Shown: positions 237 to 16,974 of the stretch, piece by piece
Numbering within the stretch: the stretch's first letter is position 1
Layout of the letters: the number at the start of each line of letters is the position of its first letter
Assembly (NCBI GenBank): GCA_021735655.1
Contig: JAIPGM010000002.1
Location: 256,001 to 320,000 of the forward strand
Direction: 5' to 3'
Source: Candidatus Omnitrophota bacterium
GTDB lineage: Bacteria; Omnitrophota; Gorgyraeia; Duberdicusellales; 4484-171
Length of the DNA stretch: 64,000 nt
Program-made: the position numbers and the translations under genes
The notes under the pieces: model-generated
Databases searched by the model: none
The model's input: the letters and a program-made list of their open reading frames with translations, nothing else
Told to the model about the DNA's origin: nothing

Positions 237-1169
237 CTAGGCTTTCGTCCAAATACGTGTATTTAAATTGAGATCTTCGGCTATGCTAACAGCCATACCT
301 AAATCTTCATAGTATTGTTTTATCGGCGCAAAGTCCAAGAGAGTTTTAAATATCCGCGGCTCAAAGAGCCTTCGGGCATAAGGTATTGCGACAAATATTT
401 TTGATTTTACAAATGAAATGTAGATTGCTTTTTTGGTTTTCTTTCTGAAGTCAGCGATTCGTTTCATTAAGCTTGTTGAAAGAATATAGCGAGCCTCGAT
501 CTGGTCACTTCCGTATACTGCAAAAAATTTTTCAAACTCCGGGTCTTCTAACCTTATGGGTTCTCCTCGCATCTTATTCCAGGATTGTAGCATTTTTCCA
601 ATACCACCAAAGAGCCGTTCGGCAATATCTGGCAAAACCACAGTAATACCCTTAAAGGACTTATTAAAATCAGCAATAAAAAATAGTCCATTAAAAATCG
701 GAGTTCGGTTTCTATTTTTGCCGCTACCGGATTCATGCGCGGCGTGCAATTCTGAAAATCTAACCTGGGTTTTATCTATGGTTCCTTGGATATAATCGTC
801 ACCTTTATATCTGTTCGGCCGCAAGTTAAAAATCTTACTTTCAGTAAAATCATCTAAGGATATGTACTTGGTTGGCGAATATTGCAGATTGCCATCAACC
901 GCCTTAATAATTTTCTCAATTATGCTACTTTTGAAATTTTTCCGGTAAGCACTTGAAATTATCTGTGTGGCTACAATACAGCCAACAATGCCGAAAAATA
1001 TAAAGTGAACCACATGGGCTAGAAGGGCTAAGATTATGGCCAAAGGCGTAATGATCGCCACTACTATATAGATTTTTTTTAATACTTGCTTGCGTTGCTG
1101 CTCTAGGATTTTTAATTCTGACCAAAGCACGGTGCTATAGTAATCTTCTAGTTCTCTTATCGTTTTCAT
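237..1169 (-). CDS. DUF3137-family membrane protein (commonly paired with LemA)
   Basis: A 310-aa ORF with an N-terminal TM segment. Overall similarity is to the DUF3137 family, which typically sits next to lemA, and lemA is immediately upstream here. This is an established-knowledge family assignment made from memory, not a search. Confidence 0.55.
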   Translation of the reverse strand: MKTIRELEDYYSTVLWSELKILEQQRKQVLKKIYIVVAIITPLAIILALLAHVVHFIFFGIVGCIVATQIISSAYRKNFKSSIIEKIIKAVDGNLQYSPTKYISLDDFTESKIFNLRPNRYKGDDYIQGTIDKTQVRFSELHAAHESGSGKNRNRTPIFNGLFFIADFNKSFKGITVVLPDIAERLFGGIGKMLQSWNKMRGEPIRLEDPEFEKFFAVYGSDQIEARYILSTSLMKRIADFRKKTKKAIYISFVKSKIFVAIPYARRLFEPRIFKTLLDFAPIKQYYEDLGMAVSIAEDLNLNTRIWTKA

Positions 1170-1191
1170 TAAGGCTTCTTTTTTCTAGAAA

Positions 1192-1752
1192 TTACTTATT
1201 AAAAAGATCCTTTACGCTAACGTTTTTACGTTCTTTTTCAACTATTTCAAATACTTGCTTGCGTTTATAATTCATCATTGAAGCTACTATATTAGTCGGA
1301 AACATTTCAACCGCATTATTGTAATCAGTAACTGAAGCATTGTAGGCTCGGCGAGCTGCCGAAATCTGTTCCTCTACTTCATTTAAAGTCCCCTGAAGCT
1401 GTAGGAAATTCTGATTGGCCTTAAGATCTGGATAATTCTCAACAGCGACCATTATTCCGCCCAAAGCTTTGGTCATTTTATTATCCAGGTCAACCTTTTG
1501 ATCATCAGAAAGTGAACTGGAAACAGCCTTAGCTCTCATCTCAGTTATTTCAGTTAAGGTGCCCCTTTCATGTTGCATGTAAGTTTTAACTGTAGCGATT
1601 AGATTCGGAATAAGGTCATACCTTTTCTTCAGTAAAGTGTCGATACTGGCAAATACATTTTGGACCTGGTTCTTTTTTCCAACCAAGCTATTGTAAAGAA
1701 AAACCGGAATTAAAACCAGTACCCCGAGAATAATAATTGTTGGTAACATCAC
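1192..1752 (-). CDS. lemA: LemA family protein
   Basis: A 186-aa ORF with an N-terminal TM helix (MMLPTIIILGVLVLIPVFL) and LemA-like conserved regions (RYDLIPNL, ERGTLTEITEMRA, AVENYPDLKANQNF). Confidence 0.8.
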   Translation of the reverse strand: MMLPTIIILGVLVLIPVFLYNSLVGKKNQVQNVFASIDTLLKKRYDLIPNLIATVKTYMQHERGTLTEITEMRAKAVSSSLSDDQKVDLDNKMTKALGGIMVAVENYPDLKANQNFLQLQGTLNEVEEQISAARRAYNASVTDYNNAVEMFPTNIVASMMNYKRKQVFEIVEKERKNVSVKDLFNK

Positions 1753-1821
1753 AAACCTCCTTTTTTACCTCTGTATATATTATCATAATTGACTTACTAT
1801 CTCAAGACTGAGACTATTACT

Positions 1822-2994
1822 TTAGCTTAAAAATGTTTTTTTGGCTCGATAAATAGCCTGGTTGCCGAATTTATTTCTTATTGAATCTACTGCCTGATGA
1901 ACCCTTTCTTTCTTTTTATCTTTTTCTCCCTCAAAAAGACTATCTTTGATTTCAGAGTCCATACAGTTCGATGCTTTAACACCTAACAGGCGTACTTCTC
2001 TTTTTTTAAGTTCAAAGTCCGACAAAAGTTTTCTAGCCGTCTTATAGATTGTATCGACAAAGTTAGTAGCGGCAATCAAGGTTAACGATCGAGTGTAGGT
2101 TTTGTAACCTTTAAGACGTATCTTTAAAGTTATCGTCCTTGCCTTTAAACCTTCTGAACGCAGGCGGCGTGAAACCTTCTCTGAAAGCCCAACCAGGGTA
2201 TCTTTAATTAGCTCTTTATCGTTAGTGTCACGCTCGAAAGTAATTTCGTTGCTTATTGATTTTATTTGATCGTTGGCTTCTACTGGACGTTGATCAATTC
2301 CTTTGGCTAGCTCCCACCAGTGTCGACCATTTTCACCAAAAATTTCGATTATCGTTTCTAATTTTTTTTCCGCTAAATCACCGATAGTTTTTATGCCTCG
2401 CTCTTTAAAAACTGCAGTACTTTTTTTACCTAATCCCCAAATTTTATTAATTTCTAAAGGATGAAGAAAGTCACGCAAATTACTTTCGGTAACCATAACT
2501 AAGCCGTCAGGTTTTTCAAGATCAGAAGCAATCTTGGCAGCCATCTTGGTCGGAGCGCAACCAACTGAAGCGGTAAGTCCAGTTGTTTTTTTTATCTGGT
2601 CTTTAAGTGCTTGGCAGGTTTTCTTTGGGCCGCCAAAAAGGTGAAAACTCCCAGTTATATCCAAAAAAGCTTCGTCAATACTAATCGGCTCGACCTTAGG
2701 TGTAAAATTATAAAATATTTTATAGATTTCTTCTGAGGCTTGATGATATTTATCCATATTAACCGGAAGAAAAACGCCCTGAGGACATTTCTTGTAGGCC
2801 AAGGATATCGGCAAGCTTGAATATATCCCAAATTTCCGAGCCTCATAAGAACAAGTTGAAACCACCCCCCTACCATTTCCTTTTTTGGGGTCAGCACCAA
2901 TAATTATTGGTTTACCAGCTAAATTCGGATTATCGCGCTGCTCAACAGCAGCGAAAAAGGCATCCATATCTACATGCAGGATGTACTTTAGCAT
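1822..2994 (-). CDS. dinB: DNA polymerase IV (Y-family translesion polymerase)
   Basis: A 390-aa ORF beginning ILHVDMDAFFAAVEQRDNP and containing SIDEAFLDITGS, with a GLG fingers/thumb region. This is the canonical DinB architecture. Confidence 0.9.
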   Translation of the reverse strand: MLKYILHVDMDAFFAAVEQRDNPNLAGKPIIIGADPKKGNGRGVVSTCSYEARKFGIYSSLPISLAYKKCPQGVFLPVNMDKYHQASEEIYKIFYNFTPKVEPISIDEAFLDITGSFHLFGGPKKTCQALKDQIKKTTGLTASVGCAPTKMAAKIASDLEKPDGLVMVTESNLRDFLHPLEINKIWGLGKKSTAVFKERGIKTIGDLAEKKLETIIEIFGENGRHWWELAKGIDQRPVEANDQIKSISNEITFERDTNDKELIKDTLVGLSEKVSRRLRSEGLKARTITLKIRLKGYKTYTRSLTLIAATNFVDTIYKTARKLLSDFELKKREVRLLGVKASNCMDSEIKDSLFEGEKDKKKERVHQAVDSIRNKFGNQAIYRAKKTFLS

Positions 2995-3119
2995 AATTTT
3001 GGGTTTATTTGGCCTATTTGAAGCCTATCGGTTTTAAATGCCCTAATTATATATATTATTGATATTGTCCAAAATAGAGCTATTTTTGAGCTAAATAGGG
3101 GCATTCTAGGGGGCACTTT

Positions 3120-4358
3120 TTAGGGCATCTTACGAATAGCTTCGACCCGTTTCAATACCGGCGGATGACTATAATCCAAAAATACCTTTAATCGATGCGG
3201 GCTTAAATTAGAAAGATTGTTTACAGTGAGCTTTTTAAGCGCCGAGATAAAGGCCTCCGGATTTTGATAGGTCCTTACCGCATAGCGATCAGCTTCATAT
3301 TCATGTTTTCGCGAAAGCAAATTACCGAATATTGAAAAAATAAAACTAATTGGTGTATAAAGGAAGCTAAAGAATATAAGCCCAGCGTAAACTGATATTT
3401 CATCCATTCTAAAAGCATTGAATAGCCCAGGATTTTTTATAAAAAATGAAAGCAGGTAAAACATCAGACCTTTAGTTAATGCTGAGAGTAAAAGACGTTT
3501 TATAATATGTTTCTTTTTATAGTGGCCAACTTCATGTGCTAAAACAGAAACAATTTCTTCAGTAGTGTGTTTTTGAATTAAAGTGTCAAATAAAGCAATC
3601 CGACGAGATTTGCCTAAACCAGTAAAAAAAGCGTTAGACTTACTTGACCGACGCGACCCATCAATTTTAAAAATACCCTTTATCTTGAACTTTTGCGAAT
3701 TAGCATAATCGCTAACCGCCTTTTTAAGCTCCCCATCTTCTAAGGGGGTAAATTTGTTAAAAAGCGGTAAAATTAACACCGGAGCAATAAAAATAAAAAA
3801 AGTACTTAAGAGAACCGTAGCCAACCAACACCAAAGCCAAGCTCCCTGATCGCTAAACTCGACAAAAAGACGTACAATTAAATAGAAAGCCGGACCGGCA
3901 ATAATTACCAACAATATCCAGTTTTTAATTAGATCAGTAATAAAAGTTTTTACGGTAGTTTTATTGAATCCATACTTCTCTTCAATAACAAAGGTCTGAT
4001 AAATAGAAAAAGGTATCTCAATAATTTGAAGTCCGAAAACAATAATTCCGGCAAAAATTAAACCGCTAAACTCAATATTTGAGCTCAAATCTCGGGAGAT
4101 TCGGTCAACTAAATTGAATCCTCCGCTTAGAATAAAAATGATAACAACTGTCGTAAAGACGGTTTTTTGAATAAGACTAAAGTAAGTATTTTCTTTAAGG
4201 TATTTTTGCGAACGACTATAGTCCTCAGGATTATAATAACCTTCAAATTCTGCAGGTAGACTAAAACCAACTGAGGAAATATTTAACATCTCTACGGTCA
4301 CCCGCAAGACATACTCGCCGATTAAAATAGCTAAAATAATAACTAAATAAGGATTCAT
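3120..4358 (-). CDS. M48 family zinc metallopeptidase (Ste24/HtpX-like), polytopic membrane protein
   Basis: A 412-aa ORF with multiple TM segments, an HEXXH motif (LAHEVGHYKKKH) and a downstream Glu (EYEADRYA). It sits immediately downstream of the GEMM-I riboswitch. Confidence 0.8.
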   Translation of the reverse strand: MNPYLVIILAILIGEYVLRVTVEMLNISSVGFSLPAEFEGYYNPEDYSRSQKYLKENTYFSLIQKTVFTTVVIIFILSGGFNLVDRISRDLSSNIEFSGLIFAGIIVFGLQIIEIPFSIYQTFVIEEKYGFNKTTVKTFITDLIKNWILLVIIAGPAFYLIVRLFVEFSDQGAWLWCWLATVLLSTFFIFIAPVLILPLFNKFTPLEDGELKKAVSDYANSQKFKIKGIFKIDGSRRSSKSNAFFTGLGKSRRIALFDTLIQKHTTEEIVSVLAHEVGHYKKKHIIKRLLLSALTKGLMFYLLSFFIKNPGLFNAFRMDEISVYAGLIFFSFLYTPISFIFSIFGNLLSRKHEYEADRYAVRTYQNPEAFISALKKLTVNNLSNLSPHRLKVFLDYSHPPVLKRVEAIRKMP

Positions 4359-4479
4359 AAAACTATTTATTTTTTGAAGTTGAAACTGACAAGATTAAAA
4401 AAACCGACAAGGGCTTCACGGTGTGTCTACCGGCAACTCAGCCACCATCATAGTCTAAGGCTCATACTCGCAAAGTTGG

Positions 4480-4595
4480 GGAGCGTTGCGTTTTAGGAGA
4501 GCTTGCGAATCATCTCGCCCAAGAACTATCTTAGGTCTGTCAGTTTTGCGCCCCTTACTTTCGTAAGGTTTGCCCTTATCGGCACCTTAATTATA
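4480..4595 (-). promoter_or_regulatory. c-di-GMP-I (GEMM) riboswitch in the leader of the M48 peptidase gene
   Basis: The minus-strand RNA reads GAUAAGGGCAAACCUUACGAAAGUAAGGGGCGCAAAACUGACAGACCUAAGAUAGUUCUUGGGCGAGAUGAUUCGCAAGCUCUCC. It matches the Vc2-type GEMM-I core GGCAAACC-(stem with GAAA tetraloop)-GGGACGCAAAGC-...-CCUAAAC... with two mismatches in the ACGCAAAGC box. It lies in the 290-nt gap between mscS and the M48 gene and is followed by a GC-rich segment and a U7 run at about 4393..4425. Confidence 0.7.
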
Positions 4596-4649
4596 CAATA
4601 TTTTTGGTGCTAATTTCAACCCAATATTCAGAATATATATACAATATCG

Positions 4650-5708
4650 TTACTTTGTCAGATGAACAGTCTGAGTAGGAAAAGCAAATTCAATCTTTTT
4701 CTTCTCAAATTCACCCTTAATGCCCAGGTTTATCTCTTGTTGAATATCCATATATTTATTATAATCACTGCTAAGCACGTAATAGACTACCTCAAAAATA
4801 AGATTAAACTCACCATAAGAAAAGAAATGAGCTCGATCCAAAGTGGCACCCTCAACACCTTCAATTATCTCCCCAATAATCTTAGGTATTTCTTTTAACT
4901 TAGAAAGAGATGTGTCATAAGTAGTACCCAGCTGAAACATCACTCTTCGTTTCTGCATTCGCTTATAATTACGTAAGCGAGAATCCGTCAAATCAGAGTT
5001 AGAAAAAACTAGCTGTTCGCCGCCTAAACTGCGAATTCGAGTAGTTTTAATTCCAATGTTTTCTACTGTTCCCAAAAGATCGCCAACAATAACAAAATCG
5101 CCAACTTCAAAGGGACGGTCAAAAATAATTGAAAAATAACTAAATAAATCCTTTAGAACTGCTTGGGCAGCCAAAGCAATGGCTACACCACCAATACCCA
5201 ACCCGGCAATAACCGTTGATATTTTAAAACCTAAGTTGTCTAAATAGAAAATAATAGCCAGGGCCCAAATAATAAACTTAGTAACCCTCAAAACACCCTC
5301 TAGACTATTCTTTAAAGTTTCACTGCGCCTAGACTTTCGCCAATAAACATCTAAACTATAGGTAATTATACGAATCAATAAACGGACCGTAAAAAAAGTT
5401 ATTAGCGCCATCACTAGAACGCCTAGGCCGCGATTAACCTGTTCACTTAAGGTCAAGGTTTTAAGACTTAAGTAGAAGGCCGCAAGGTAAAAAATCGGAA
5501 TAGCTATTTTCTCAATAATTTCAGCTAAGAAATCATCAATACTAGTAAGCGTCTTTGCAGCTAAACTTCTGAGTTTTTTTAAAATGATGAGCTCGAATAT
5601 CTTTATTACAACACAAGCTAACAGGAATGCACCAATATGAACAATATAATCCTGTAATGAGTTGCCAAGTATAATGTACTCTGAAAATTCTTGCATAGTT
5701 ACCCCCAA
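4650..5708 (-). CDS. Mechanosensitive ion channel, MscS family
   Basis: A 352-aa ORF with N-terminal TM helices and the MscS beta-domain signature (FDRPFEVGDFVIVGDLLGTVENIGIKTTRIRSLGGEQLVFSNSDL). Confidence 0.85.
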   Translation of the reverse strand: MGVTMQEFSEYIILGNSLQDYIVHIGAFLLACVVIKIFELIILKKLRSLAAKTLTSIDDFLAEIIEKIAIPIFYLAAFYLSLKTLTLSEQVNRGLGVLVMALITFFTVRLLIRIITYSLDVYWRKSRRSETLKNSLEGVLRVTKFIIWALAIIFYLDNLGFKISTVIAGLGIGGVAIALAAQAVLKDLFSYFSIIFDRPFEVGDFVIVGDLLGTVENIGIKTTRIRSLGGEQLVFSNSDLTDSRLRNYKRMQKRRVMFQLGTTYDTSLSKLKEIPKIIGEIIEGVEGATLDRAHFFSYGEFNLIFEVVYYVLSSDYNKYMDIQQEINLGIKGEFEKKKIEFAFPTQTVHLTK

Positions 5709-5727
5709 AAAAATATCAGTTAAACTG

Positions 5728-6921
5728 TTAATTTTCCGAAATCGAATACCGAACTTTAGATTTTTGTATTTCCAAAGTGCTAGCCAGTTCGGTTTCAGTT
5801 ACAAACCCGAGTTCTTTTAAAATTTCTCCAAGCATAATTCCTCTTTTCCAATGAATTAAAAGAGCTTCATCGAGCTGATTTTGAGAAATTGCCTTTCGTT
5901 CAATTAATATCTGACCTAAAGGTTTATCATTGGTTGTCTTTCGATGATAGATTTCCGGTGTTGCGTCTTTATTTGTTTTGGTGTCACGACGATCAACCAT
6001 AAATTTGCTCTCAGGGATAGTTTTGAGGTAACGCTTTATTTCGGTAACTTTTTCATTAAGCTGAATCATATTTTCGATACCAGAAGTGTACTCTCGATTG
6101 ACTACGGCAATCGAAATTGTCATCAAAGGTGTATTTGTTAATTTACGAGTTCGATCGCGATTAACCACAAAACCTTGGTTGCGATCTATTTCAGAGTAAT
6201 GAAAAGGAATAATCGTATCGAAACTTTTAATAAAATTGTGGCATATTTGTGCGTATTTATCCATGGTGCTGATAAAAACAAAATCATCTCCTCCAATATG
6301 ACCGATAAAATCATCAGAATTTCCGAATTTTTTTACCGCGTCAATTAACAAGTGAGTTGTATGAAGAATTACTCCGTCACCTTTACGGTAGCCATAGACA
6401 TCATTGAAAGATTTAAAATTATCAATATCTAAATAAGCAAATGAAAATGGTTTTCCAGTTTTAAACTTTTCATTTAAGGCATCCTCAAATATTTTAGCAC
6501 CAGGAAGACCAGTTAAGGAACTCGCATAAATACTGTGTTGGGCGCGTCTTGCAGCCATTTCAATTCGAATACGTAAATCAAGCGGGTCTGGTGGTTTTAT
6601 CAAATAATCATCGACTCCTTGCTTTAGACTTAATAATTGAGCGCGTAATTGCCGCTTATTGATTAAAGTTATGACCGGAGTAAAAGCAGTGGCAAAATTT
6701 TCTTTTAAAAGCCGACACATGGCTAATTGTTCTTTACGGGCTGATTGAATATCAATGACTATGACATCAGGGGAAATTCTTTTTATTTTTTCGATATCTT
6801 GCGGTTGAGTAAATTCACGTAGGAAAACTTCGTATCCCCAACCGTCAAAACAAAAGCGCAGAACCTCTTTTAATTGACTATCCGAAGAGATAATTAAAAT
6901 TTTATGTATAGTATCAATCAT
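5728..6921 (-). CDS. Response-regulator receiver - GGDEF (GGDDF variant) - MshEN/T2SSE_N-like c-di-GMP-binding domain protein
   Basis: The REC domain has the phospho-Asp context VIVIDIQ, T in PVITLI and K in DYLIKP. The GGDEF domain has LDIDNFKSFNDVYGYRKGDGVI and the signature GGDDF in place of GGDEF, and the RxxD I-site is replaced by NSDD. The C-terminal 50 aa, LGEILKELGFVTETELASTLEIQ, fit the MshEN c-di-GMP-binding motif LGxxLLxxGLLxxxxLxxxLxxQ almost exactly. Confidence 0.8.
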   Translation of the reverse strand: MIDTIHKILIISSDSQLKEVLRFCFDGWGYEVFLREFTQPQDIEKIKRISPDVIVIDIQSARKEQLAMCRLLKENFATAFTPVITLINKRQLRAQLLSLKQGVDDYLIKPPDPLDLRIRIEMAARRAQHSIYASSLTGLPGAKIFEDALNEKFKTGKPFSFAYLDIDNFKSFNDVYGYRKGDGVILHTTHLLIDAVKKFGNSDDFIGHIGGDDFVFISTMDKYAQICHNFIKSFDTIIPFHYSEIDRNQGFVVNRDRTRKLTNTPLMTISIAVVNREYTSGIENMIQLNEKVTEIKRYLKTIPESKFMVDRRDTKTNKDATPEIYHRKTTNDKPLGQILIERKAISQNQLDEALLIHWKRGIMLGEILKELGFVTETELASTLEIQKSKVRYSISEN

Positions 6922-6929
6922 TTAAACTA

Positions 6930-9900
6930 TTATACCACTTTCTTCTGTTCCTCAATTATTTTTTGGGCTATTTCCTTTGGTACCTGGGTGTACTTTTTAA
7001 AATGCATTGAGCAACTTGCCCGGCCACTAGATAAAGACCTAAGATTGGTTACGTAACCAAACATTTCCGAAAGTGGAGCCTCAGCCGAAATTAGCTTTTG
7101 GTTACCTTTTGAATCCATACCTAAAATTTTCCCCCGACGCGCACAAAGATAACCAACAATACCACTAGTATGCTCTTCTGGAGTAAGTACTTCCAAGCTC
7201 ATGCAAGGCTCAAGAAGAACCGGACTCGCTTTTAAAAAAGCGTTTTTAAAGCAAGTTCTTGCAGCAATTTTAAACGCTAACTCTGAAGAATCAACTTCAT
7301 GGTATGAACCATCAACGAGCTTTACCTTAACATCGACCACCGGATAACCGGCATAAGAACCTTTTTTCATTGCTTCAATAATACCTTTCTCAACTGCCGG
7401 TATATAGTTTTTAGGTATTGCTCCACCTTTAATGCTATCTTTAAATTCAAAACCAGCAGCTTCTTCATTAGGAGAAAGCTCAATCGCTACGTGGCCGTAT
7501 TGGCCTCTGCCTCCGCTTTGCTTAGCATGTTTATACTCTTCGCTAGTAGACTGAAGGATTGTTTCTTTATAGGCAACTTTAGGCTGACCGGCCTGCGCTG
7601 AAACCTTAAATTCTTCCTTCAAACGTTCAACGATTATTTCAAGATGTAATTCTCCCATACCAGAAAGAATTGTTTCAGAGGTTTCCTCGTCGGTATGAGC
7701 GTTAAAAGTGGGGTCTTCTTCTGCTAGTTTAGCTAAACCCTTGGCCATCCTATCCTGATCGGAACGACTCTCCGGTTTTATGCTGATTGAAACGACTGGC
7801 TCAGAAAATTCAATTGACTCAAGTAATATTGGATTTTGAATGTCAGAGAGTGTATCGCCGGTTAAAGTGGAACTGAGACCGACAATTGCCGCAATATCAC
7901 CGGCAAACACTGCGTCAACATTTTCTCGTTGGTTAGCATGCATTCGAACAATTCTCCCGATACGCTCTTTTTTATTTTTAGTTGCATTTAAAACATAAGT
8001 TCCGGCCCTTAAGCATCCCGAATAGATTCGAGCATAGATCAATTTACCTACATGCTGGTCAGCTTGGACCTTAAAAGCAAGCGCTGAAAAAAATTCATCA
8101 TCTTGAGGCTTACGTTCCAAGCTTTTTTCTTTATCATCGGGGTCAGAACCAATAACTGGCGGAATTTCAGCCGGAGAAGGTAGATAGGCAACAACTGCAT
8201 CAAGCAAGTCTTGAACACCCTTATTTTTTAATGCTGACCCGCAAAAAACCGGAACAATCTTATTTGAAACTGTAGCTTTGCGCAAAGCCTCAGTCAGATC
8301 GTCTTTGCTGATTGACTCCTCTGACTGTAAGTATTTTTCCATTAATTTACCATCATAAGAGGCTACCCGATCAACCAAACTATGGCGGTATCTTTGAGCG
8401 ATTTCTTTATAGCTTTCATGAATATCTTCCGACCTAATATCTTTGCCTAAGGATTCGTCATTATAAAGATGCATTTTCATATTAATAAGATCAATTATGC
8501 CTTTAAAGTCACCTTCCTTACCGATCGGTATCTGTAAGGCAACTGGTTTAGCCCCAATAGTATTTTCGATCTCTTCTAAAACCTTAAAAAAATCAGCCCC
8601 GACCCGATCCATTTTATTTATAAAGGCTATCTTCGGTACATGATATTTATCCGATTGGCGCCATACGGTTTCAGTTTGAGACTCTACTCCTCCCACCGCA
8701 CAAAATACAGCAACTGCCCCATCTAGGACCCTTAACGATCTTTCAACTTCAGCGGTAAAATCAACGTGGCCGGGGGTATCAATAATAGTAATTTGGCAAT
8801 CTTTCCAACTACAAGTGGTTGCAGCTGAAGTTATAGTTATACCTCTTTCCTGTTCTTGTTTCATCCAATCCATCTGAGCTGCCCCGTCATGAACTTCGCC
8901 GATTTTGTGCGACCGGCCGGTATAGAAAAGAACTCTTTCAGTAAGAGTAGTTTTCCCAGCATCAATATGGGCCATAATCCCAATATTACGGATCTTGCCC
9001 AGTTCTATTTTTCTCTCCGGCAGTGGCTCCTCTACTTTTTTTACTGCTTCAGGCTTAGGCTCGGCTTGTATTTCTGGTTCTTGAGCCGATAGCTCCGGAG
9101 TCACTTCTTCACTTGCGGTTTCAGGTTGCCCTTGGGTCAAATCTTTAGTTTCACCTTCCTGCCCTTGGATTAAAGATTCGTCTTCCTTTAGCGATTCTTT
9201 ATCTGAAGGTAACTCTTCAAATTCCTTAGTTTCTGAAATAGGTTCACTTGGCTGCGCCTGAACTAACTCATTCTCAAGATTGGAAGATTCTTTTTGAGAA
9301 TCACCGTCCTCAATTAAAAGAATATCTGCTAACTCATCGTCCTTAATAACGCCGCTTCGTTTAATCTCGCGTAATTTATTAAGAATACGAATCCGCTCCT
9401 GATCAATTTTTTCGATATCTTTACCTTTTAGCTCCAACTCCTTAGATTTAATCTCTAACTCATTTTTTAATTCTTCACTTTGTTCTTCTAAAAGAGAGTA
9501 CTCTTCTTTAGATACCCATTCGCTTTGACGTTGTTTTTCTTTCATTTGAGCAACTTCAGCAGCATGTGCGACAGTTTCTTTAGATAGCTGGTGCATTCTT
9601 TGAGTCTGATCTTTTAGCTCACTTTCCAAAGAAATAATCTTATCTTTCAATTGATTGATATTGACTTCACGAATTTTGATTACTTCTTCAGCTTGATCAA
9701 GTTCTTTTTTAAACTGCACACTCCGGGAAAACTCTTTCTCTAAATCCTTTTCCTTAGTAATCAATTTAACTCTCAAAGCCTCATAGGGACCTTTTCCTTT
9801 TTTCAAAGTAAGCTGCTGACTATTAAGCCATTTTTTATTGCGGTTAATTTCCTCGCCCAATTCTTTAGCCTTGAGGCTAAGCTTTTGATGCTCATCTTGC

Positions 9901-10139
9901 AAGCTGAGATACTCAGCCTGAGTTTTTGTTAAGGCGACAATTTCATTTTTTAATTTTGTTAGTTCCCTTTTTGAAGATTTAAGGTTTTCTGACAAGGCAG
10001 AAATTTTTTGTTGTTGCAAGTCAGGCTTAAGGCCAAACTTTGTACCCAGAGTACCTTTTAAAACTGAATCATCTTCGTTGTTAACTAAATACAGTACTAG
10101 GGCAATCGATACTCCAATTACAACAAAAATTAAAGTCAT
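6930..10139 (-). CDS. Elongation factor G paralog with a ~390-aa N-terminal extension (TM anchor + long coiled coil + acidic linker)
   Basis: The 1069-aa ORF is continuous. Residues 1-22 form a TM helix ([21 protein letters not shown]). Residues ~40-260 form a K/E/L/Q heptad-rich coiled coil. Residues ~260-390 are an acidic E/S/P/Q-rich linker. From [27 protein letters not shown]...[25 protein letters not shown] onward it is a full-length EF-G (G domain through domain V, ~678 aa). The ATG at 10139 has a TGnTATAAT element 6 nt upstream and no SD. There is no in-frame stop between the extension and the EF-G body. Confidence 0.8.
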
Positions 10140-14230: not shown

Positions 14231-16201
14231 CTAAAAGCTTACTTTACAACCGGCAAAGAAGTTTCTTTCTGGAGAAGGATAAAGTCCTCGCGTGGTACCG
14301 GTAAGATTAGTTGCAGCGTACTCACTGTAAAGTTCGTTAAATAAATTATTAACACCGGCAAAAAGCTCTAACTTTTTTCCGGTATAACTTAATTTTATAT
14401 TAGTTGTGTTGTAACTTTTTAACTTAGGGCTGATATTATTAAGATCATTAATTAAATAAACTTTATCTCGATAAAGATAATCAGCAAAAAATGAAAAGCG
14501 TTCAAAAAAATCATATTTTACCGAAGCTGTAAGCATAGCCTTAGGAACGAAAGGAACTTCCTTTCCAGCGTAAACACCGCCACGGAATTTCGCATCGATA
14601 AAGCGATAGCCGAGAGTAAACTTTGTATTGTCAAATGGGGTAAGGGTTGTAGTGAGATTCGCACCTTGACGACGAATTTTACTATAATTTTCGTTAGCGA
14701 ACGTCCCTGGGTTGTAGTATATTTCGTTATTAACATTCATTTGAAAATAATCCAAAGATGTGGTTAAAAAGTCAGTTAAACGCATATTGGCCCCCAAACT
14801 TATAGTTTTAGAACGTTGTGGTTTTAAATTTGTATTAATTGCTGCAGCCGGCCAAGTAACTAAGTATTCATCGGTCTTACCGACCCTCAAACCTCGCGAA
14901 AAATTAAGATAAATATTACTTTCGTTATCGATTTTATAGTTAAGTCCAGTTTCATACAAGCCTTCTCGAAAATTCAATCCATCATCAGTGCTTGTAGAAC
15001 CAAAATAATCAAAAGTAAACTTTTCTTTTTGCACCCTAGCCCCTAAATGCCCAGCAAGTTTTTCATTAAAGCTAATTTCATCCTGTAAAAACCAAGCTAG
15101 GCTCTGTCGATCAATGTCAGTAGCCGCGCTTGAGGTATCAGCTGATAAATCCGAACTATAAAATTCAAATCCGGCAATTAGCTCTTGTTGAATTCCTCTA
15201 GTATCAAAAGACAATAATAGTTGTGGCCGCGCTTGAAAATTAGTTATATGTTTGTCAGTAGACATGCTATAAGAAAGTAAATCCTCCAACTCATTTCGGT
15301 TACGATAAAATAAATCAACTGAAGCAATCAGCTCAGGTGAAAACTCGTTTTTAATAGTTAAGCCTAAAGTATTATCCTCTCGTTGATAGTTATTTAAAGG
15401 AGTTGTTGAGTCACGACGTGAAGTTCCAGCTAACCGTTCAGCTTCGGTTATATCATCTGGCAATCCATAGATATATTCGTGATGAGTCAAGTCAGCACTT
15501 ATCTCTAACTGTTCGGTAGGCCTAGAGTTTAGTTCTATTGAGCTGTATTTTGAGCGGTAATGACTATTTTGACGATAACCACTTGTTGAATGGTACTCAG
15601 AAAATGTGCGAAACGATAAAAGGTCTTCTCCACCTGAGGCTGAAATAGACTCTTTGGTCGAGCGGTAACTTCCGGCTTCAAAGTTAACTTCAACTGAAAG
15701 ATCCTTAGCTTGAGGATCTTTTGAAATAATATTAACTATTCCTCCGGCAGCACCCTCTCCATACAGGACAACTCCGCCACCCCGGATTACTTCTATTCGT
15801 TCAACATTTTTTAAGGGCAACTCAGTCCAGTTAACTCCGCTCATATCGATTTCATTAATTTTTCGACCATTCACTAAAACCAGCATGTTTGATGCAGCAT
15901 TATCACCAAAACCCATCATATCAACAGTTGTCTTAACGTTAGTTCCGTAATAATCGCTGACGTGTAACGACGGAACATTTCTTAAGAAATCAATTACTGT
16001 GCTTGATCCGCTAGCCTTGATATGTTTCTCGGTATATACTTTGGTCGCATAAGGAGTTTCAGAAATTGTTGTTTCTTCTACTCCGGCATAAGGAGTTACT
16101 ACTATTTGCTCTAAATCTATTTGTCCTTGCGCCAACAAAGGACTTAATGATCCAAATTGAATAGTCAAAAATAATATTAAAAATACAAAACACCTTTTCA
16201 T
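14231..16201 (-). CDS. TonB-dependent outer-membrane receptor (BtuB-like, downstream of a cobalamin riboswitch)
   Basis: A signal peptide (MKRCFVFLILFLTIQFGSLSPLLAQG) is followed by a plug domain and a 22-strand barrel that ends in a terminal Phe (GCKVSF). The start is taken as the ATG at 16201, which has a GGAGGGGG SD, rather than the upstream GTG used by the ORF track. Confidence 0.85.
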   Translation of the reverse strand: MKRCFVFLILFLTIQFGSLSPLLAQGQIDLEQIVVTPYAGVEETTISETPYATKVYTEKHIKASGSSTVIDFLRNVPSLHVSDYYGTNVKTTVDMMGFGDNAASNMLVLVNGRKINEIDMSGVNWTELPLKNVERIEVIRGGGVVLYGEGAAGGIVNIISKDPQAKDLSVEVNFEAGSYRSTKESISASGGEDLLSFRTFSEYHSTSGYRQNSHYRSKYSSIELNSRPTEQLEISADLTHHEYIYGLPDDITEAERLAGTSRRDSTTPLNNYQREDNTLGLTIKNEFSPELIASVDLFYRNRNELEDLLSYSMSTDKHITNFQARPQLLLSFDTRGIQQELIAGFEFYSSDLSADTSSAATDIDRQSLAWFLQDEISFNEKLAGHLGARVQKEKFTFDYFGSTSTDDGLNFREGLYETGLNYKIDNESNIYLNFSRGLRVGKTDEYLVTWPAAAINTNLKPQRSKTISLGANMRLTDFLTTSLDYFQMNVNNEIYYNPGTFANENYSKIRRQGANLTTTLTPFDNTKFTLGYRFIDAKFRGGVYAGKEVPFVPKAMLTASVKYDFFERFSFFADYLYRDKVYLINDLNNISPKLKSYNTTNIKLSYTGKKLELFAGVNNLFNELYSEYAATNLTGTTRGLYPSPERNFFAGCKVSF

Positions 16202-16227
16202 ACTACCCCCTCCTTTAAAACTAATCT

Positions 16228-16262
16228 TAAAATAAAAAAACCCTATACCTTCTGGTATAGGG
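16228..16262 (-). terminator. Rho-independent terminator / riboswitch expression-platform hairpin upstream of the TonB receptor
   Basis: Minus-strand RNA CCCUAUACC-AGAA-GGUAUAGGG is followed by UUUUUUUAUUUU. It forms a perfect 9-bp stem, lies between the cobalamin aptamer and the receptor start codon, and fits attenuation control. Confidence 0.55.
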
Positions 16263-16329
16263 TGCACCCTGATTTACTTGGCCCTAAAATAAAAAAATTC
16301 AGGTAATGTTTCCACGCAAAACCTAAACT

Positions 16330-16520
16330 TTGCTTCTTACGGCAGGTCTTCTGACTTCCCTACATCTTTTAGCTACCTTCCCACCTGCATTTTAAAACAG
16401 ATAGTGGTTTAAATCGCTAAAAGGGCCCTAAAATTATCTCTAGGGGTCGGGATCACAGCACCGGGAGTGTCTCCGATTCTCACGGAGTTCCCTATTAAGC
16501 TCCTTTTGAGCACCGTAAAA
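16330..16520 (-). promoter_or_regulatory. Cobalamin (AdoCbl) riboswitch
   Basis: The minus-strand RNA contains GGUGCU...UUAAUAGGGAACUCCGUGAGAAUCGGAG...CCCGGUGCUGUGA...ACCACUAUC...GCAGGUGGGAAGGUAGC. It matches the cobalamin aptamer consensus elements AGGGAA, GUGnnAAUC, CCCG-ACUGU-like, a B12-box-like CCACU and a distal GGGAAGG. It lies upstream of the TonB receptor (the classic btuB arrangement), with a consensus promoter upstream and a terminator downstream. Confidence 0.6.
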
Positions 16521-16550
16521 TTAGCTACTTTTATACAAAGAACATCTGTA

Positions 16551-16883: not shown

Positions 16884-16956
16884 TTTAAAACATGCCCCCA
16901 TCCCGACTCGAACGGGAATTTCAGCCTTAGGAGGGCCGCGCTCTATCCTGTTGAGC
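16884..16956 (-). tRNA. tRNA-Arg (anticodon CCU)
   Basis: The 73-nt sequence is GCCCCTATAGCTCAACAGGATAGAGCGCGGCCCTCCTAAGGCTGAAATTCCCGTTCGAGTCGGGATGGGGGCA. The cloverleaf was checked by hand. The acceptor has 7 bp (one G-U). The D stem is GCTC/GAGC. The anticodon stem has 5 bp around the loop CUCCUAA (U33, CCU, A37). The T stem has 5 bp around the loop TTCGAGT. The discriminator is A and no CCA is encoded. Confidence 0.9.
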
Positions 16957-16974
16957 TATAGGGGCGACGAATGG

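Follow-up and report, generated by a model that had tools for sequence, protein, structure and literature searches.

The stretch of 64,000 nucleotides (nt) from a Candidatus Omnitrophota bacterium that was analysed here (the window) carries a putative membrane peptidase gene of family M48, and the intergenic region in front of this gene raises a question: does it contain a riboswitch for cyclic di-GMP (c-di-GMP) and, if so, how would this riboswitch act on the peptidase gene? An earlier reading of the letters of the window (the sequence-only reading) had proposed a GEMM-I riboswitch of about 90 nt at this place, possibly acting by termination within a local c-di-GMP module. All features of the window described below lie on its minus strand.

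The aptamer, its promoter and its gene

The whole window was scanned with Rfam release 15, which returned three matches above the curated thresholds. One of them, RF01051 (c-di-GMP-I), covers 4584..4429 over the full model (1-87 of 87 positions) with 60.8 bits, where the gathering score is 35 (E 1.9e-9). When the scan was restricted to the intergenic region, RF01051 was the sole meaningful match (E 9.7e-12). The call of a GEMM-I riboswitch on the minus strand is therefore borne out by the very cmsearch check that had been suggested with it. The length of the element had been misjudged: because 71 nt are inserted in the distal part of helix P3, the aptamer is 156 nt long.

The gene that follows (3120..4358, ATG at 4358) encodes 412 amino acids (aa) and had been correctly recognised as an M48 membrane peptidase. 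Its product matches the Pfam families PF16491 (161.7 bits, cut-off 27) and PF01435 (127.4 bits, cut-off 20.3), and the HExxH zinc motif is read in its translation as HEVGH. An NCBI protein assigned to a Candidatus Omnitrophica MAG is 100% identical to it. From these features, it is a putative integral-membrane zinc protease of peptidase family M48 (Ste24/HtpX type), and it is the gene that the riboswitch is predicted to regulate.

The aptamer (4429..4584), supported by RF01051 and by covariation, is of the type with a GNRA tetraloop and its receptor, and it displays the hallmarks of type-1 GEMM-I RNAs, namely a GGCAAAC core, a CGCAAA junction and a UGCCGG 3' tail. Its 5' strand (P, GCCGAUAAGGGC, 4572..4583), delimited on the Rfam consensus alignment, comprises the 5' half of helix P1 (GCCG, 4583..4580), the AUAAG junction, the equivalent of G20 (4574) and the 5' members of the two basal pairs of P2 (4573 and 4572). 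The P2 hairpin (4548..4573) carries a GAAA tetraloop (4562..4559), and P3 (4435..4545) contains the two halves of the receptor (CCUAAG, 4535..4530, and GAUGG, 4449..4445). On the 3' side, the Rfam alignment places the equivalent of C92 at 4433, followed by the 3' half of P1 (strand A, CGGU, 4432..4429). We take G4574, A4547 and C4433 to correspond to G20, A47 and C92 of the Vc2 aptamer; the three positions align to the RF01051 consensus. In ligand binding, roles are described for G20, A47 (intercalating) and C92 (Watson-Crick pairing) (PMC5888326). The specificity position of the element is a G, the c-di-GMP type, as opposed to the A of variants that recognise cyclic GMP-AMP (c-GAMP). A c-GAMP (GEMM-Ib) or other variant of the clan was rejected on this nucleotide, and the other models of the clan score lower.

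The closest M48 homologues were then traced to their contigs, and the window was aligned with six of these metagenomic loci (L083, L084, L086, L088, L089 and L211). RF01051 scores 57.8-61.7 bits in L083, L084 and L086, and the element was recognised by alignment in the other three. The promoter, the aptamer, the insertion, a 12-nt distal motif and the U-run are all kept in front of the orthologous M48 gene in these six loci. Strand P and the three ligand-contact equivalents are invariant in the seven sequences, and both the tetraloop and its receptor are kept. Compensatory changes affect four of the six stem pairs of P2, and five pairs of P3, whose helices 4-6 are 96-100% paired, are altered on both sides. 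For P1, P2 and P3 taken together, 97.8% of the cells of the alignment are paired and 11 pairs show compensatory changes. None of 500 column shuffles reached the observed pairing and covariation, and pairing amounted to only 24-48% when the partners were slid by 1-3 columns. Since conservation and covariation go beyond both the shuffled and the slid controls, the aptamer does not look like a relic. P1 itself (GCCG/CGGU) is 100% paired and invariant, so that we infer this helix and covariation does not prove it. Every feature of RF01051 that can be looked for in a sequence was found, which on these grounds makes the element a member of the c-di-GMP-I class. It is thus almost certainly a genuine riboswitch sensing c-di-GMP.

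The element also appears to have its own promoter. A sigma-70-type promoter (4619..4590), with a -35 box TTGAAA (4619..4614), an 18-nt spacer and a -10 box TATAAT (4595..4590), matches the consensus at 11 of 12 positions and is the best one within 3000..7200; both hexamers are kept in the six other loci. Because of its position, transcription would start at about 4586-4583, i.e. 0-3 nt before the 5' strand of the aptamer. The order on the minus strand is then the promoter, the aptamer, a strand named H with a run of seven U, and the ATG at 4358, and the same arrangement was found in the six other loci. A leader peptide was rejected, the leader containing no open reading frame (ORF) of at least 20 aa on the sense strand. 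In the window, 38 A/U-rich nt separate the U-run from the ATG. More generally, the distance from H to the ATG is about 40-176 nt in the window, L086, L088, L089 and L211, where the ATG is set in an unstructured tract rich in A and U, and it shrinks to 9-10 nt in L083 and L084. As this leaves no room for another promoter, the M48 gene of L083 and L084 would be expressed only by read-through of the riboswitch.

The 71-nt extension of distal P3 (4454..4524), reported by cmscan as an insertion, is predicted to fold into an irregular rod. This rod is capped by a 27-nt loop, C/A-rich and G-poor (4501..4475, CUCUCCUAAAACGCAACGCUCCCCAAC), which resembles an anti-Shine-Dalgarno sequence. The insertion measures 69-74 nt in L083, L084 and L086 according to cmscan. 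The loop motif CUCCCC(A)A is kept in six of the seven orthologues, L211 having ACUCCCUCUCG instead. In the predicted folds, the loop spans 23-27 nt with CUCUCC or CUCCCC motifs in the window, L083, L084 and L211; L086, L088 and L089 differ in that G-runs of the insert partly pair with the C-runs. A long P3 is not exceptional in itself, since metagenomic GEMM-I aptamers elsewhere carry P3 extensions of 40-110 nt. The possibility that the insert is a separate known RNA was rejected, a permissive Rfam scan of 4340..4660 giving only a sub-threshold, snoRNA-like chance match upstream. No convincing partner in cis was found for the C-rich loop: the M48 gene has no Shine-Dalgarno sequence, and the nearest G-rich one, that of the MscS gene, lies 1.1 kb upstream.

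The expression platform and its polarity

About 15 nt past the aptamer lies strand H (GCCCUUGUCGGU, 4403..4414), which is complementary to P over 12 of 12 nt; we call the resulting duplex helix B. The last nucleotide of H is also the first of the seven U (U7, 4397..4403), a run that starts 26 nt past the 3' end of the aptamer and not 60-100 nt downstream, as had been read initially. Since H pairs across the 5' half of P1, the junction, the equivalent of G20 and the base of P2, helix B and a ligand-competent aptamer are mutually exclusive. A further short strand, T (ACCG, 4419..4422), can pair with the CGGU of P1 in the opened aptamer. This pairing is present in the minimum-free-energy fold of six of the seven leaders, with 78.6% of the cells paired and one-sided changes only.

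Each of the seven leaders has helix B in its minimum-free-energy fold, and RNAalifold recovers it in the consensus structure. Its 12 pairs are kept in the seven orthologues, and at the two variable positions the changes (C to U in the window; G to A in both L089 and L211) leave the pair intact. Its predicted stability is -21 to -24 kcal/mol. In every orthologue it is followed within 0-2 nt by a tract rich in U (5-7 of 8 nt); in the window, it is flush with U7. The state containing helix B is the global energy minimum of the window leader, 17.6 kcal/mol below the fold constrained to the aptamer, and it is favoured by about 8-13 kcal/mol across the seven leaders. Moreover, long-range pairs enter the predicted fold once CUUG has been transcribed. 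Given this energy difference and these early pairs, the nearest-neighbour model implies that the effect of the ligand must be kinetic. A helix B longer than 12 base pairs (bp) was rejected, its flanks being mismatched in nearly all sequences.

Strand H can also be part of a local hairpin (4417..4400, GAAGCC-CUUGUC-GGUUUU, of general form xGCC-CUUGUC-GGCx'). In the window, this hairpin reaches only -4.3 kcal/mol; it contains two G-C pairs and takes up four of the seven U. In the orthologues, it has 4-7 bp, is worth -7 to -10 kcal/mol and stands flush with the U-run.

To these sequences can be added other GEMM-I elements. A metagenome search with a 16-mer of the P strand returned the unrelated elements L102, L156, L177 and, in part, L191. 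These elements have different P3 stems and linkers and present the same 12-nt H complement beside a U-run. The units of L156 (about 4520..4752, minus strand of that locus) and L191 (about 351..560, plus strand of that locus), as well as those of L102 and L177, run into the 3' end of an ORF that converges on them, with no co-directional ORF downstream.

The sequence-only reading had suggested that the switch may act by termination at a 3' hairpin. Its first half holds, as a helix abuts a conserved U-run and termination is the most reasonable output; the platform probably works in this way. The hairpin is, however, not a simple local terminator: a scan for terminator consensus sequences flagged none here, and the strong helix beside the U-run is long-range. 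A terminator formed by T and H in the manner of the Cd1 switch (ACCG/CGGU) was also rejected, with just 3-4 bp, a loop of 9-19 nt and, as judged by eye, no conservation.

Two polarities, ON and OFF, are compatible with these parts, the arguments pointing both ways. We favour, at roughly even chances, an ON switch, in which c-di-GMP permits read-through, and the full model of ON, kinetically controlled termination described here stands equally in the balance. The dedicated promoter would start the transcript at the 5' strand of the aptamer. Without c-di-GMP, the emerging H would pair with P, the unpaired AUAAG junction serving as a toehold, while ACCG (4422..4419) would capture the freed 3' half of P1. 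The resulting 12-bp helix, enclosing the whole aptamer and flush with the U-run, would be an intrinsic terminator, and an RNA of about 185 nt would be released. If c-di-GMP is bound before H is made, P would be locked in P1 and the ligand pocket, just the feeble local hairpin would form, and RNA polymerase would read through to produce the M48 protease.

Several observations are consistent with the ON polarity. Helix B should terminate because it contains the very strand that abuts the U-run. It is the only substantial stem beside the U-run in L102 and L156, since the local hairpin there has only 3 bp. In the window, helix B followed by U7 resembles the canonical terminator (about 10 bp and U7) that follows a cobalamin riboswitch in the same genome. 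Finally, in both characterised GEMM-I transcriptional switches (Cd1 and pilM), the RNA ends up stably in the terminator fold and control is kinetic (PMC9262584).

A serious rival is an OFF switch made of the same parts, which is possible but somewhat unlikely. The local hairpin would then be the terminator and helix B the antiterminator. Without ligand, P would pair with H, which would remove the 5' half and the loop of the hairpin and keep its basal pairs from forming, and M48 would be expressed; c-di-GMP would lock P in the aptamer, free the hairpin and turn the M48 gene off. A number of points weigh on this side and against ON. As P and H are nearly invariant, helix B rests on conserved complementarity and not on covariation. 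The flank pair of the local hairpin does covary, being G-C in five orthologues, A-U in two and C-G in L177, and the second flank pairs are complementary in the window, L083, L086, L211 and L177. Hairpins of -9 to -10 kcal/mol stand directly before U5-7 in L083, L086, L088, L211 and L177, those of the last four looking like respectable flush terminators. Such strong local hairpins argue against ON because an ON switch should not want a terminator in its bound state. In addition, helix B never exceeds 12 bp, 1-2 nt other than U separate it from the U-run in six of seven orthologues, and the tract that follows it in L084 (CCUACUUU) is poor. Helix B ends 1-4 nt short of the base of the local hairpin. 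L196, a GEMM-I element that shares this 5' strand, has a clear OFF wiring, its P being paired to the apical portion of a canonical terminator of 7-8 bp. The characterised Cd1 GEMM-I switch is likewise an OFF switch (PMC9262584).

Other features fit an OFF switch poorly. Helix B holds the 3' half of the local hairpin and ends 0-2 nt from the U-run, where a 12-bp duplex should itself terminate. The pairing of the segment beside a U-tract is sufficient for termination, even when the partner is provided in trans. The weakness of the local hairpin in the window and its consumption of four of the seven U are difficult to reconcile with a terminator, as are the hairpins of just 3 bp in L102 and L156. 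Furthermore, helix B is 8-17 kcal/mol more stable than the aptamer with the local hairpin, which is atypical of an antiterminator.

The conservation of the P·H pairing outside the M48 loci leads to another, unlikely, reading: a distinct, undescribed GEMM-I 'closing-helix' wiring, shared with the orphan convergent units, in which the RNA of about 185 nt released in the M48 clade, with paired ends and an anti-Shine-Dalgarno-like C-rich loop, might act in trans. P and H may then each form a small hairpin, with complementary 6-nt loops (GAUAAG and CUUGUC), the two merging into the 12-bp helix. Under this reading, the units of L156, L191, L102 and L177 could be orphan riboswitch RNAs or could drive antisense transcription gated by c-di-GMP.

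A genuine riboswitch whose main output is not conditional termination, acting instead on ribosome access or mRNA stability or through a trans-acting RNA of about 185 nt, is decidedly improbable. The M48 gene has no Shine-Dalgarno sequence in any locus, while the MscS and LemA genes have GGAGG; H is closely followed by the ATG in L083 and L084; the tip of the P3 extension is the conserved G-poor loop of 23-27 nt described above; and the related units of L156 and L191 have no co-directional gene downstream. All of this would suit such an output. However, ribosome occlusion cannot be the common mechanism because the ATG is far beyond H in the window, L086, L088, L089 and L211, although ribosome access could additionally be affected in L083 and L084. 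The U-run is also conserved everywhere, and a search for targets of the C-rich loop gave none. As for a chance match or a decaying, functionless relic, it is barely credible: its loss has left no trace in L081/L082, the closest relative, or in L212, which makes the element dispensable, but such a relic is effectively refuted already by the Rfam score (E 1.9e-9), by the matches in the orthologues and by 11 compensatory pairs among loci that share just 63-70% identity in their M48 proteins, with the ligand-contact nucleotides, tetraloop, receptor, promoter, H and U-run all kept.

Distribution and gene neighbourhood

We then considered how widely the riboswitch accompanies the M48 gene. It is absent in four close relatives (L081/L082, L212, L090 and L213). 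In L081/L082, the closest one (M48 72% identical), the gap between the MscS and M48 genes is reduced to 18 nt (3982..4001 of that locus), and in L212 it measures 39 nt (2961..3001). Riboswitch and promoter have been gained or lost cleanly within the clade. In full Rfam scans, no RF01051 match was found within 3 kb of the M48 gene in any of 80 loci from other species (at most 62% identity). Regular-expression matches to GEMM-I cores upstream of the 80 M48 loci looked like chance only, the flagged L025 and L054 being negative with Rfam. From its absence in the four close relatives and in the 80 distant loci, the pairing of this riboswitch with M48 is rare and confined to one clade. The literature searched contains no paper linking a c-di-GMP riboswitch to M48, Ste24, HtpX or Omnitrophota. 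The opinion that the pairing is uncommon was thus well founded.

The same cannot be said of the local producer-sensor-effector module for c-di-GMP that had been proposed around the riboswitch. A gene for a REC-GGDEF-MshEN protein (6921..5728) is present upstream and its domains had been correctly named, but it is not adjacent to the riboswitch: a gene for an MscS-type channel, identified with Pfam (5696/5708..4650), lies between them, directly upstream of the riboswitch region. Both genes are context and stand outside the switch. The REC and GGDEF domains were found with Pfam and by matches to PleD-type structures of the Protein Data Bank (PDB). The Pfam match to GGDEF is limited to profile positions 5-90 of 161, i.e. 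the first half of the palm, and the signature reads GGDDF, where PleD has GGEEF. As this departs from the catalytic form GG[D/E]EF, the role of producer is unproven and cyclase activity seems doubtful.

The C-terminal 55 residues of this protein resemble solved MshEN domains, the comparison including their tandem LGxxL...G(L/F)(V/L) motifs. In comparisons with PDB sequences, they matched MshE of Vibrio cholerae (5HTL, E 2.9e-5), PilF of Thermus thermophilus (6F8L, E 1.4e-11) and the c-di-GMP-binding domain of PilF (8PDK, E 0.0067). With Pfam, no MshEN match was obtained even at E <= 10, and the domain was recovered only through the PDB sequences. The protein would accordingly be at least as much like a receptor of c-di-GMP as like a producer; the role of binder is the more secure of the two, and it is still a candidate role.

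The gene order also argues against a module built on the riboswitch. The synteny EF-G, REC-GGDEF, MscS, M48 and DinB is kept in L081-L089. Since the order GGDEF-MscS-M48 persists in L081/L082 and L212, which have no riboswitch, this association is independent of it. The conserved neighbourhood of a c-di-GMP-related protein, MscS and M48 is suggestive, with no evidence of a closed loop of producer, sensor and effector.

Other features of the neighbourhood can be mentioned. The REC-GGDDF-MshEN gene has no Shine-Dalgarno sequence, and a TGnTATAAT-like box ends 7-8 nt before its ATG in every locus (window, L081, L083, L084, L086 and L089), so that its mRNA looks leaderless; the elongation factor G (EF-G)-like gene of the window shows the same pattern. 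This EF-G-like ORF (6930..10139) encodes 1069 aa, with EF-G domains from about residue 382, preceded by an N-terminal extension of about 380 aa without Pfam match; in relatives, the annotated length is 1022-1052 aa, with 707 aa for L086. Downstream of M48, genes for DinB (a Y-family polymerase), LemA and a DUF3137 protein occupy 237..2994, in an order kept in L083, L089 and L211. Ribosome-binding sites of the GGAGG type were found at the MscS and LemA genes, and none at M48, DinB and DUF3137.

Further along the window, a cobalamin riboswitch (RF00174, 81.7 bits, 16324..16532, with a platform extending to about 16200) is followed by two terminator-like hairpins. The second is canonical, its stem of about 10 bp being directly followed by U7. 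Next come a Shine-Dalgarno sequence, the strong GGAGGGGG, and an ORF of about 678 aa (16267..14231). A tRNA gene (RF00005, 59.3 bits, 16893..16965) lies just upstream of this riboswitch.

Comparison with studied switches and significance

With the Vc2 aptamer of V. cholerae (RF01051), the element shares the three-helix architecture, the GAAA tetraloop of P2 docking into a CCUAAG-type receptor in P3, and the equivalents of G20, A47 and C92. It differs from Vc2 by the 71-nt extension of P3 with its C-rich loop, the Omnitrophota host, the M48 gene and a terminator-type platform relying on the 5' strand. The pilM switch of Geobacter metallireducens, a c-GAMP (GEMM-Ib) ON switch (PMC9262584), also has exclusive aptamer and terminator folds under kinetic control and, if the preferred ON reading is right, the ligand would prevent termination in both cases. 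In pilM, however, H pairs with the 3' strand A, including the C that pairs with the ligand, whereas here H pairs with the 5' strand P, including G20, in a helix that encloses the aptamer; moreover, the specificity nucleotide is G here and not A.

The Cd1 switch of Clostridioides difficile, a c-di-GMP-I OFF switch (PMC9262584), resembles our element by an aptamer followed by an intrinsic terminator and by a short T strand able to pair with A, and under the OFF polarity it would be the functional counterpart of our element. In Cd1, the antiterminator is A·T and the terminator T·H, whereas the window shows hardly any T·H pairing and has P·H as its main alternative helix. Under either polarity, the wiring differs from that of both studied GEMM-I switches, which engage the 3' strand of the aptamer instead of the 5' strand. 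The c-di-GMP-I riboswitch Bc1 of Bacillus thuringiensis (PMC11218506), which has a long platform, is similar in carrying more than one terminator-like structure. Bc1 has two separate terminator hairpins 28 bp apart, whereas here a long-range and a local stem share one strand and one U-run.

What is new at this locus is the host phylum, the regulated gene, the clade-specific extension of P3 and the platform based on the 5' strand. The understanding of the riboswitch class itself is unchanged, the element being an ordinary member of its RNA class placed on an unusual gene. Two alternative stems on one U-run, together with a switching strand on the 5' side, make it a compact test case for the polarity of termination riboswitches. 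The finding places c-di-GMP signalling and a riboswitch that looks functional in Omnitrophota, a phylum for which metagenomes are almost the sole source of knowledge. It ties c-di-GMP to a membrane protease of the Ste24/HtpX type, an output not reported for c-di-GMP riboswitches in the literature searched, and hints that c-di-GMP controls the quality control of the envelope or of membrane proteins in this clade.

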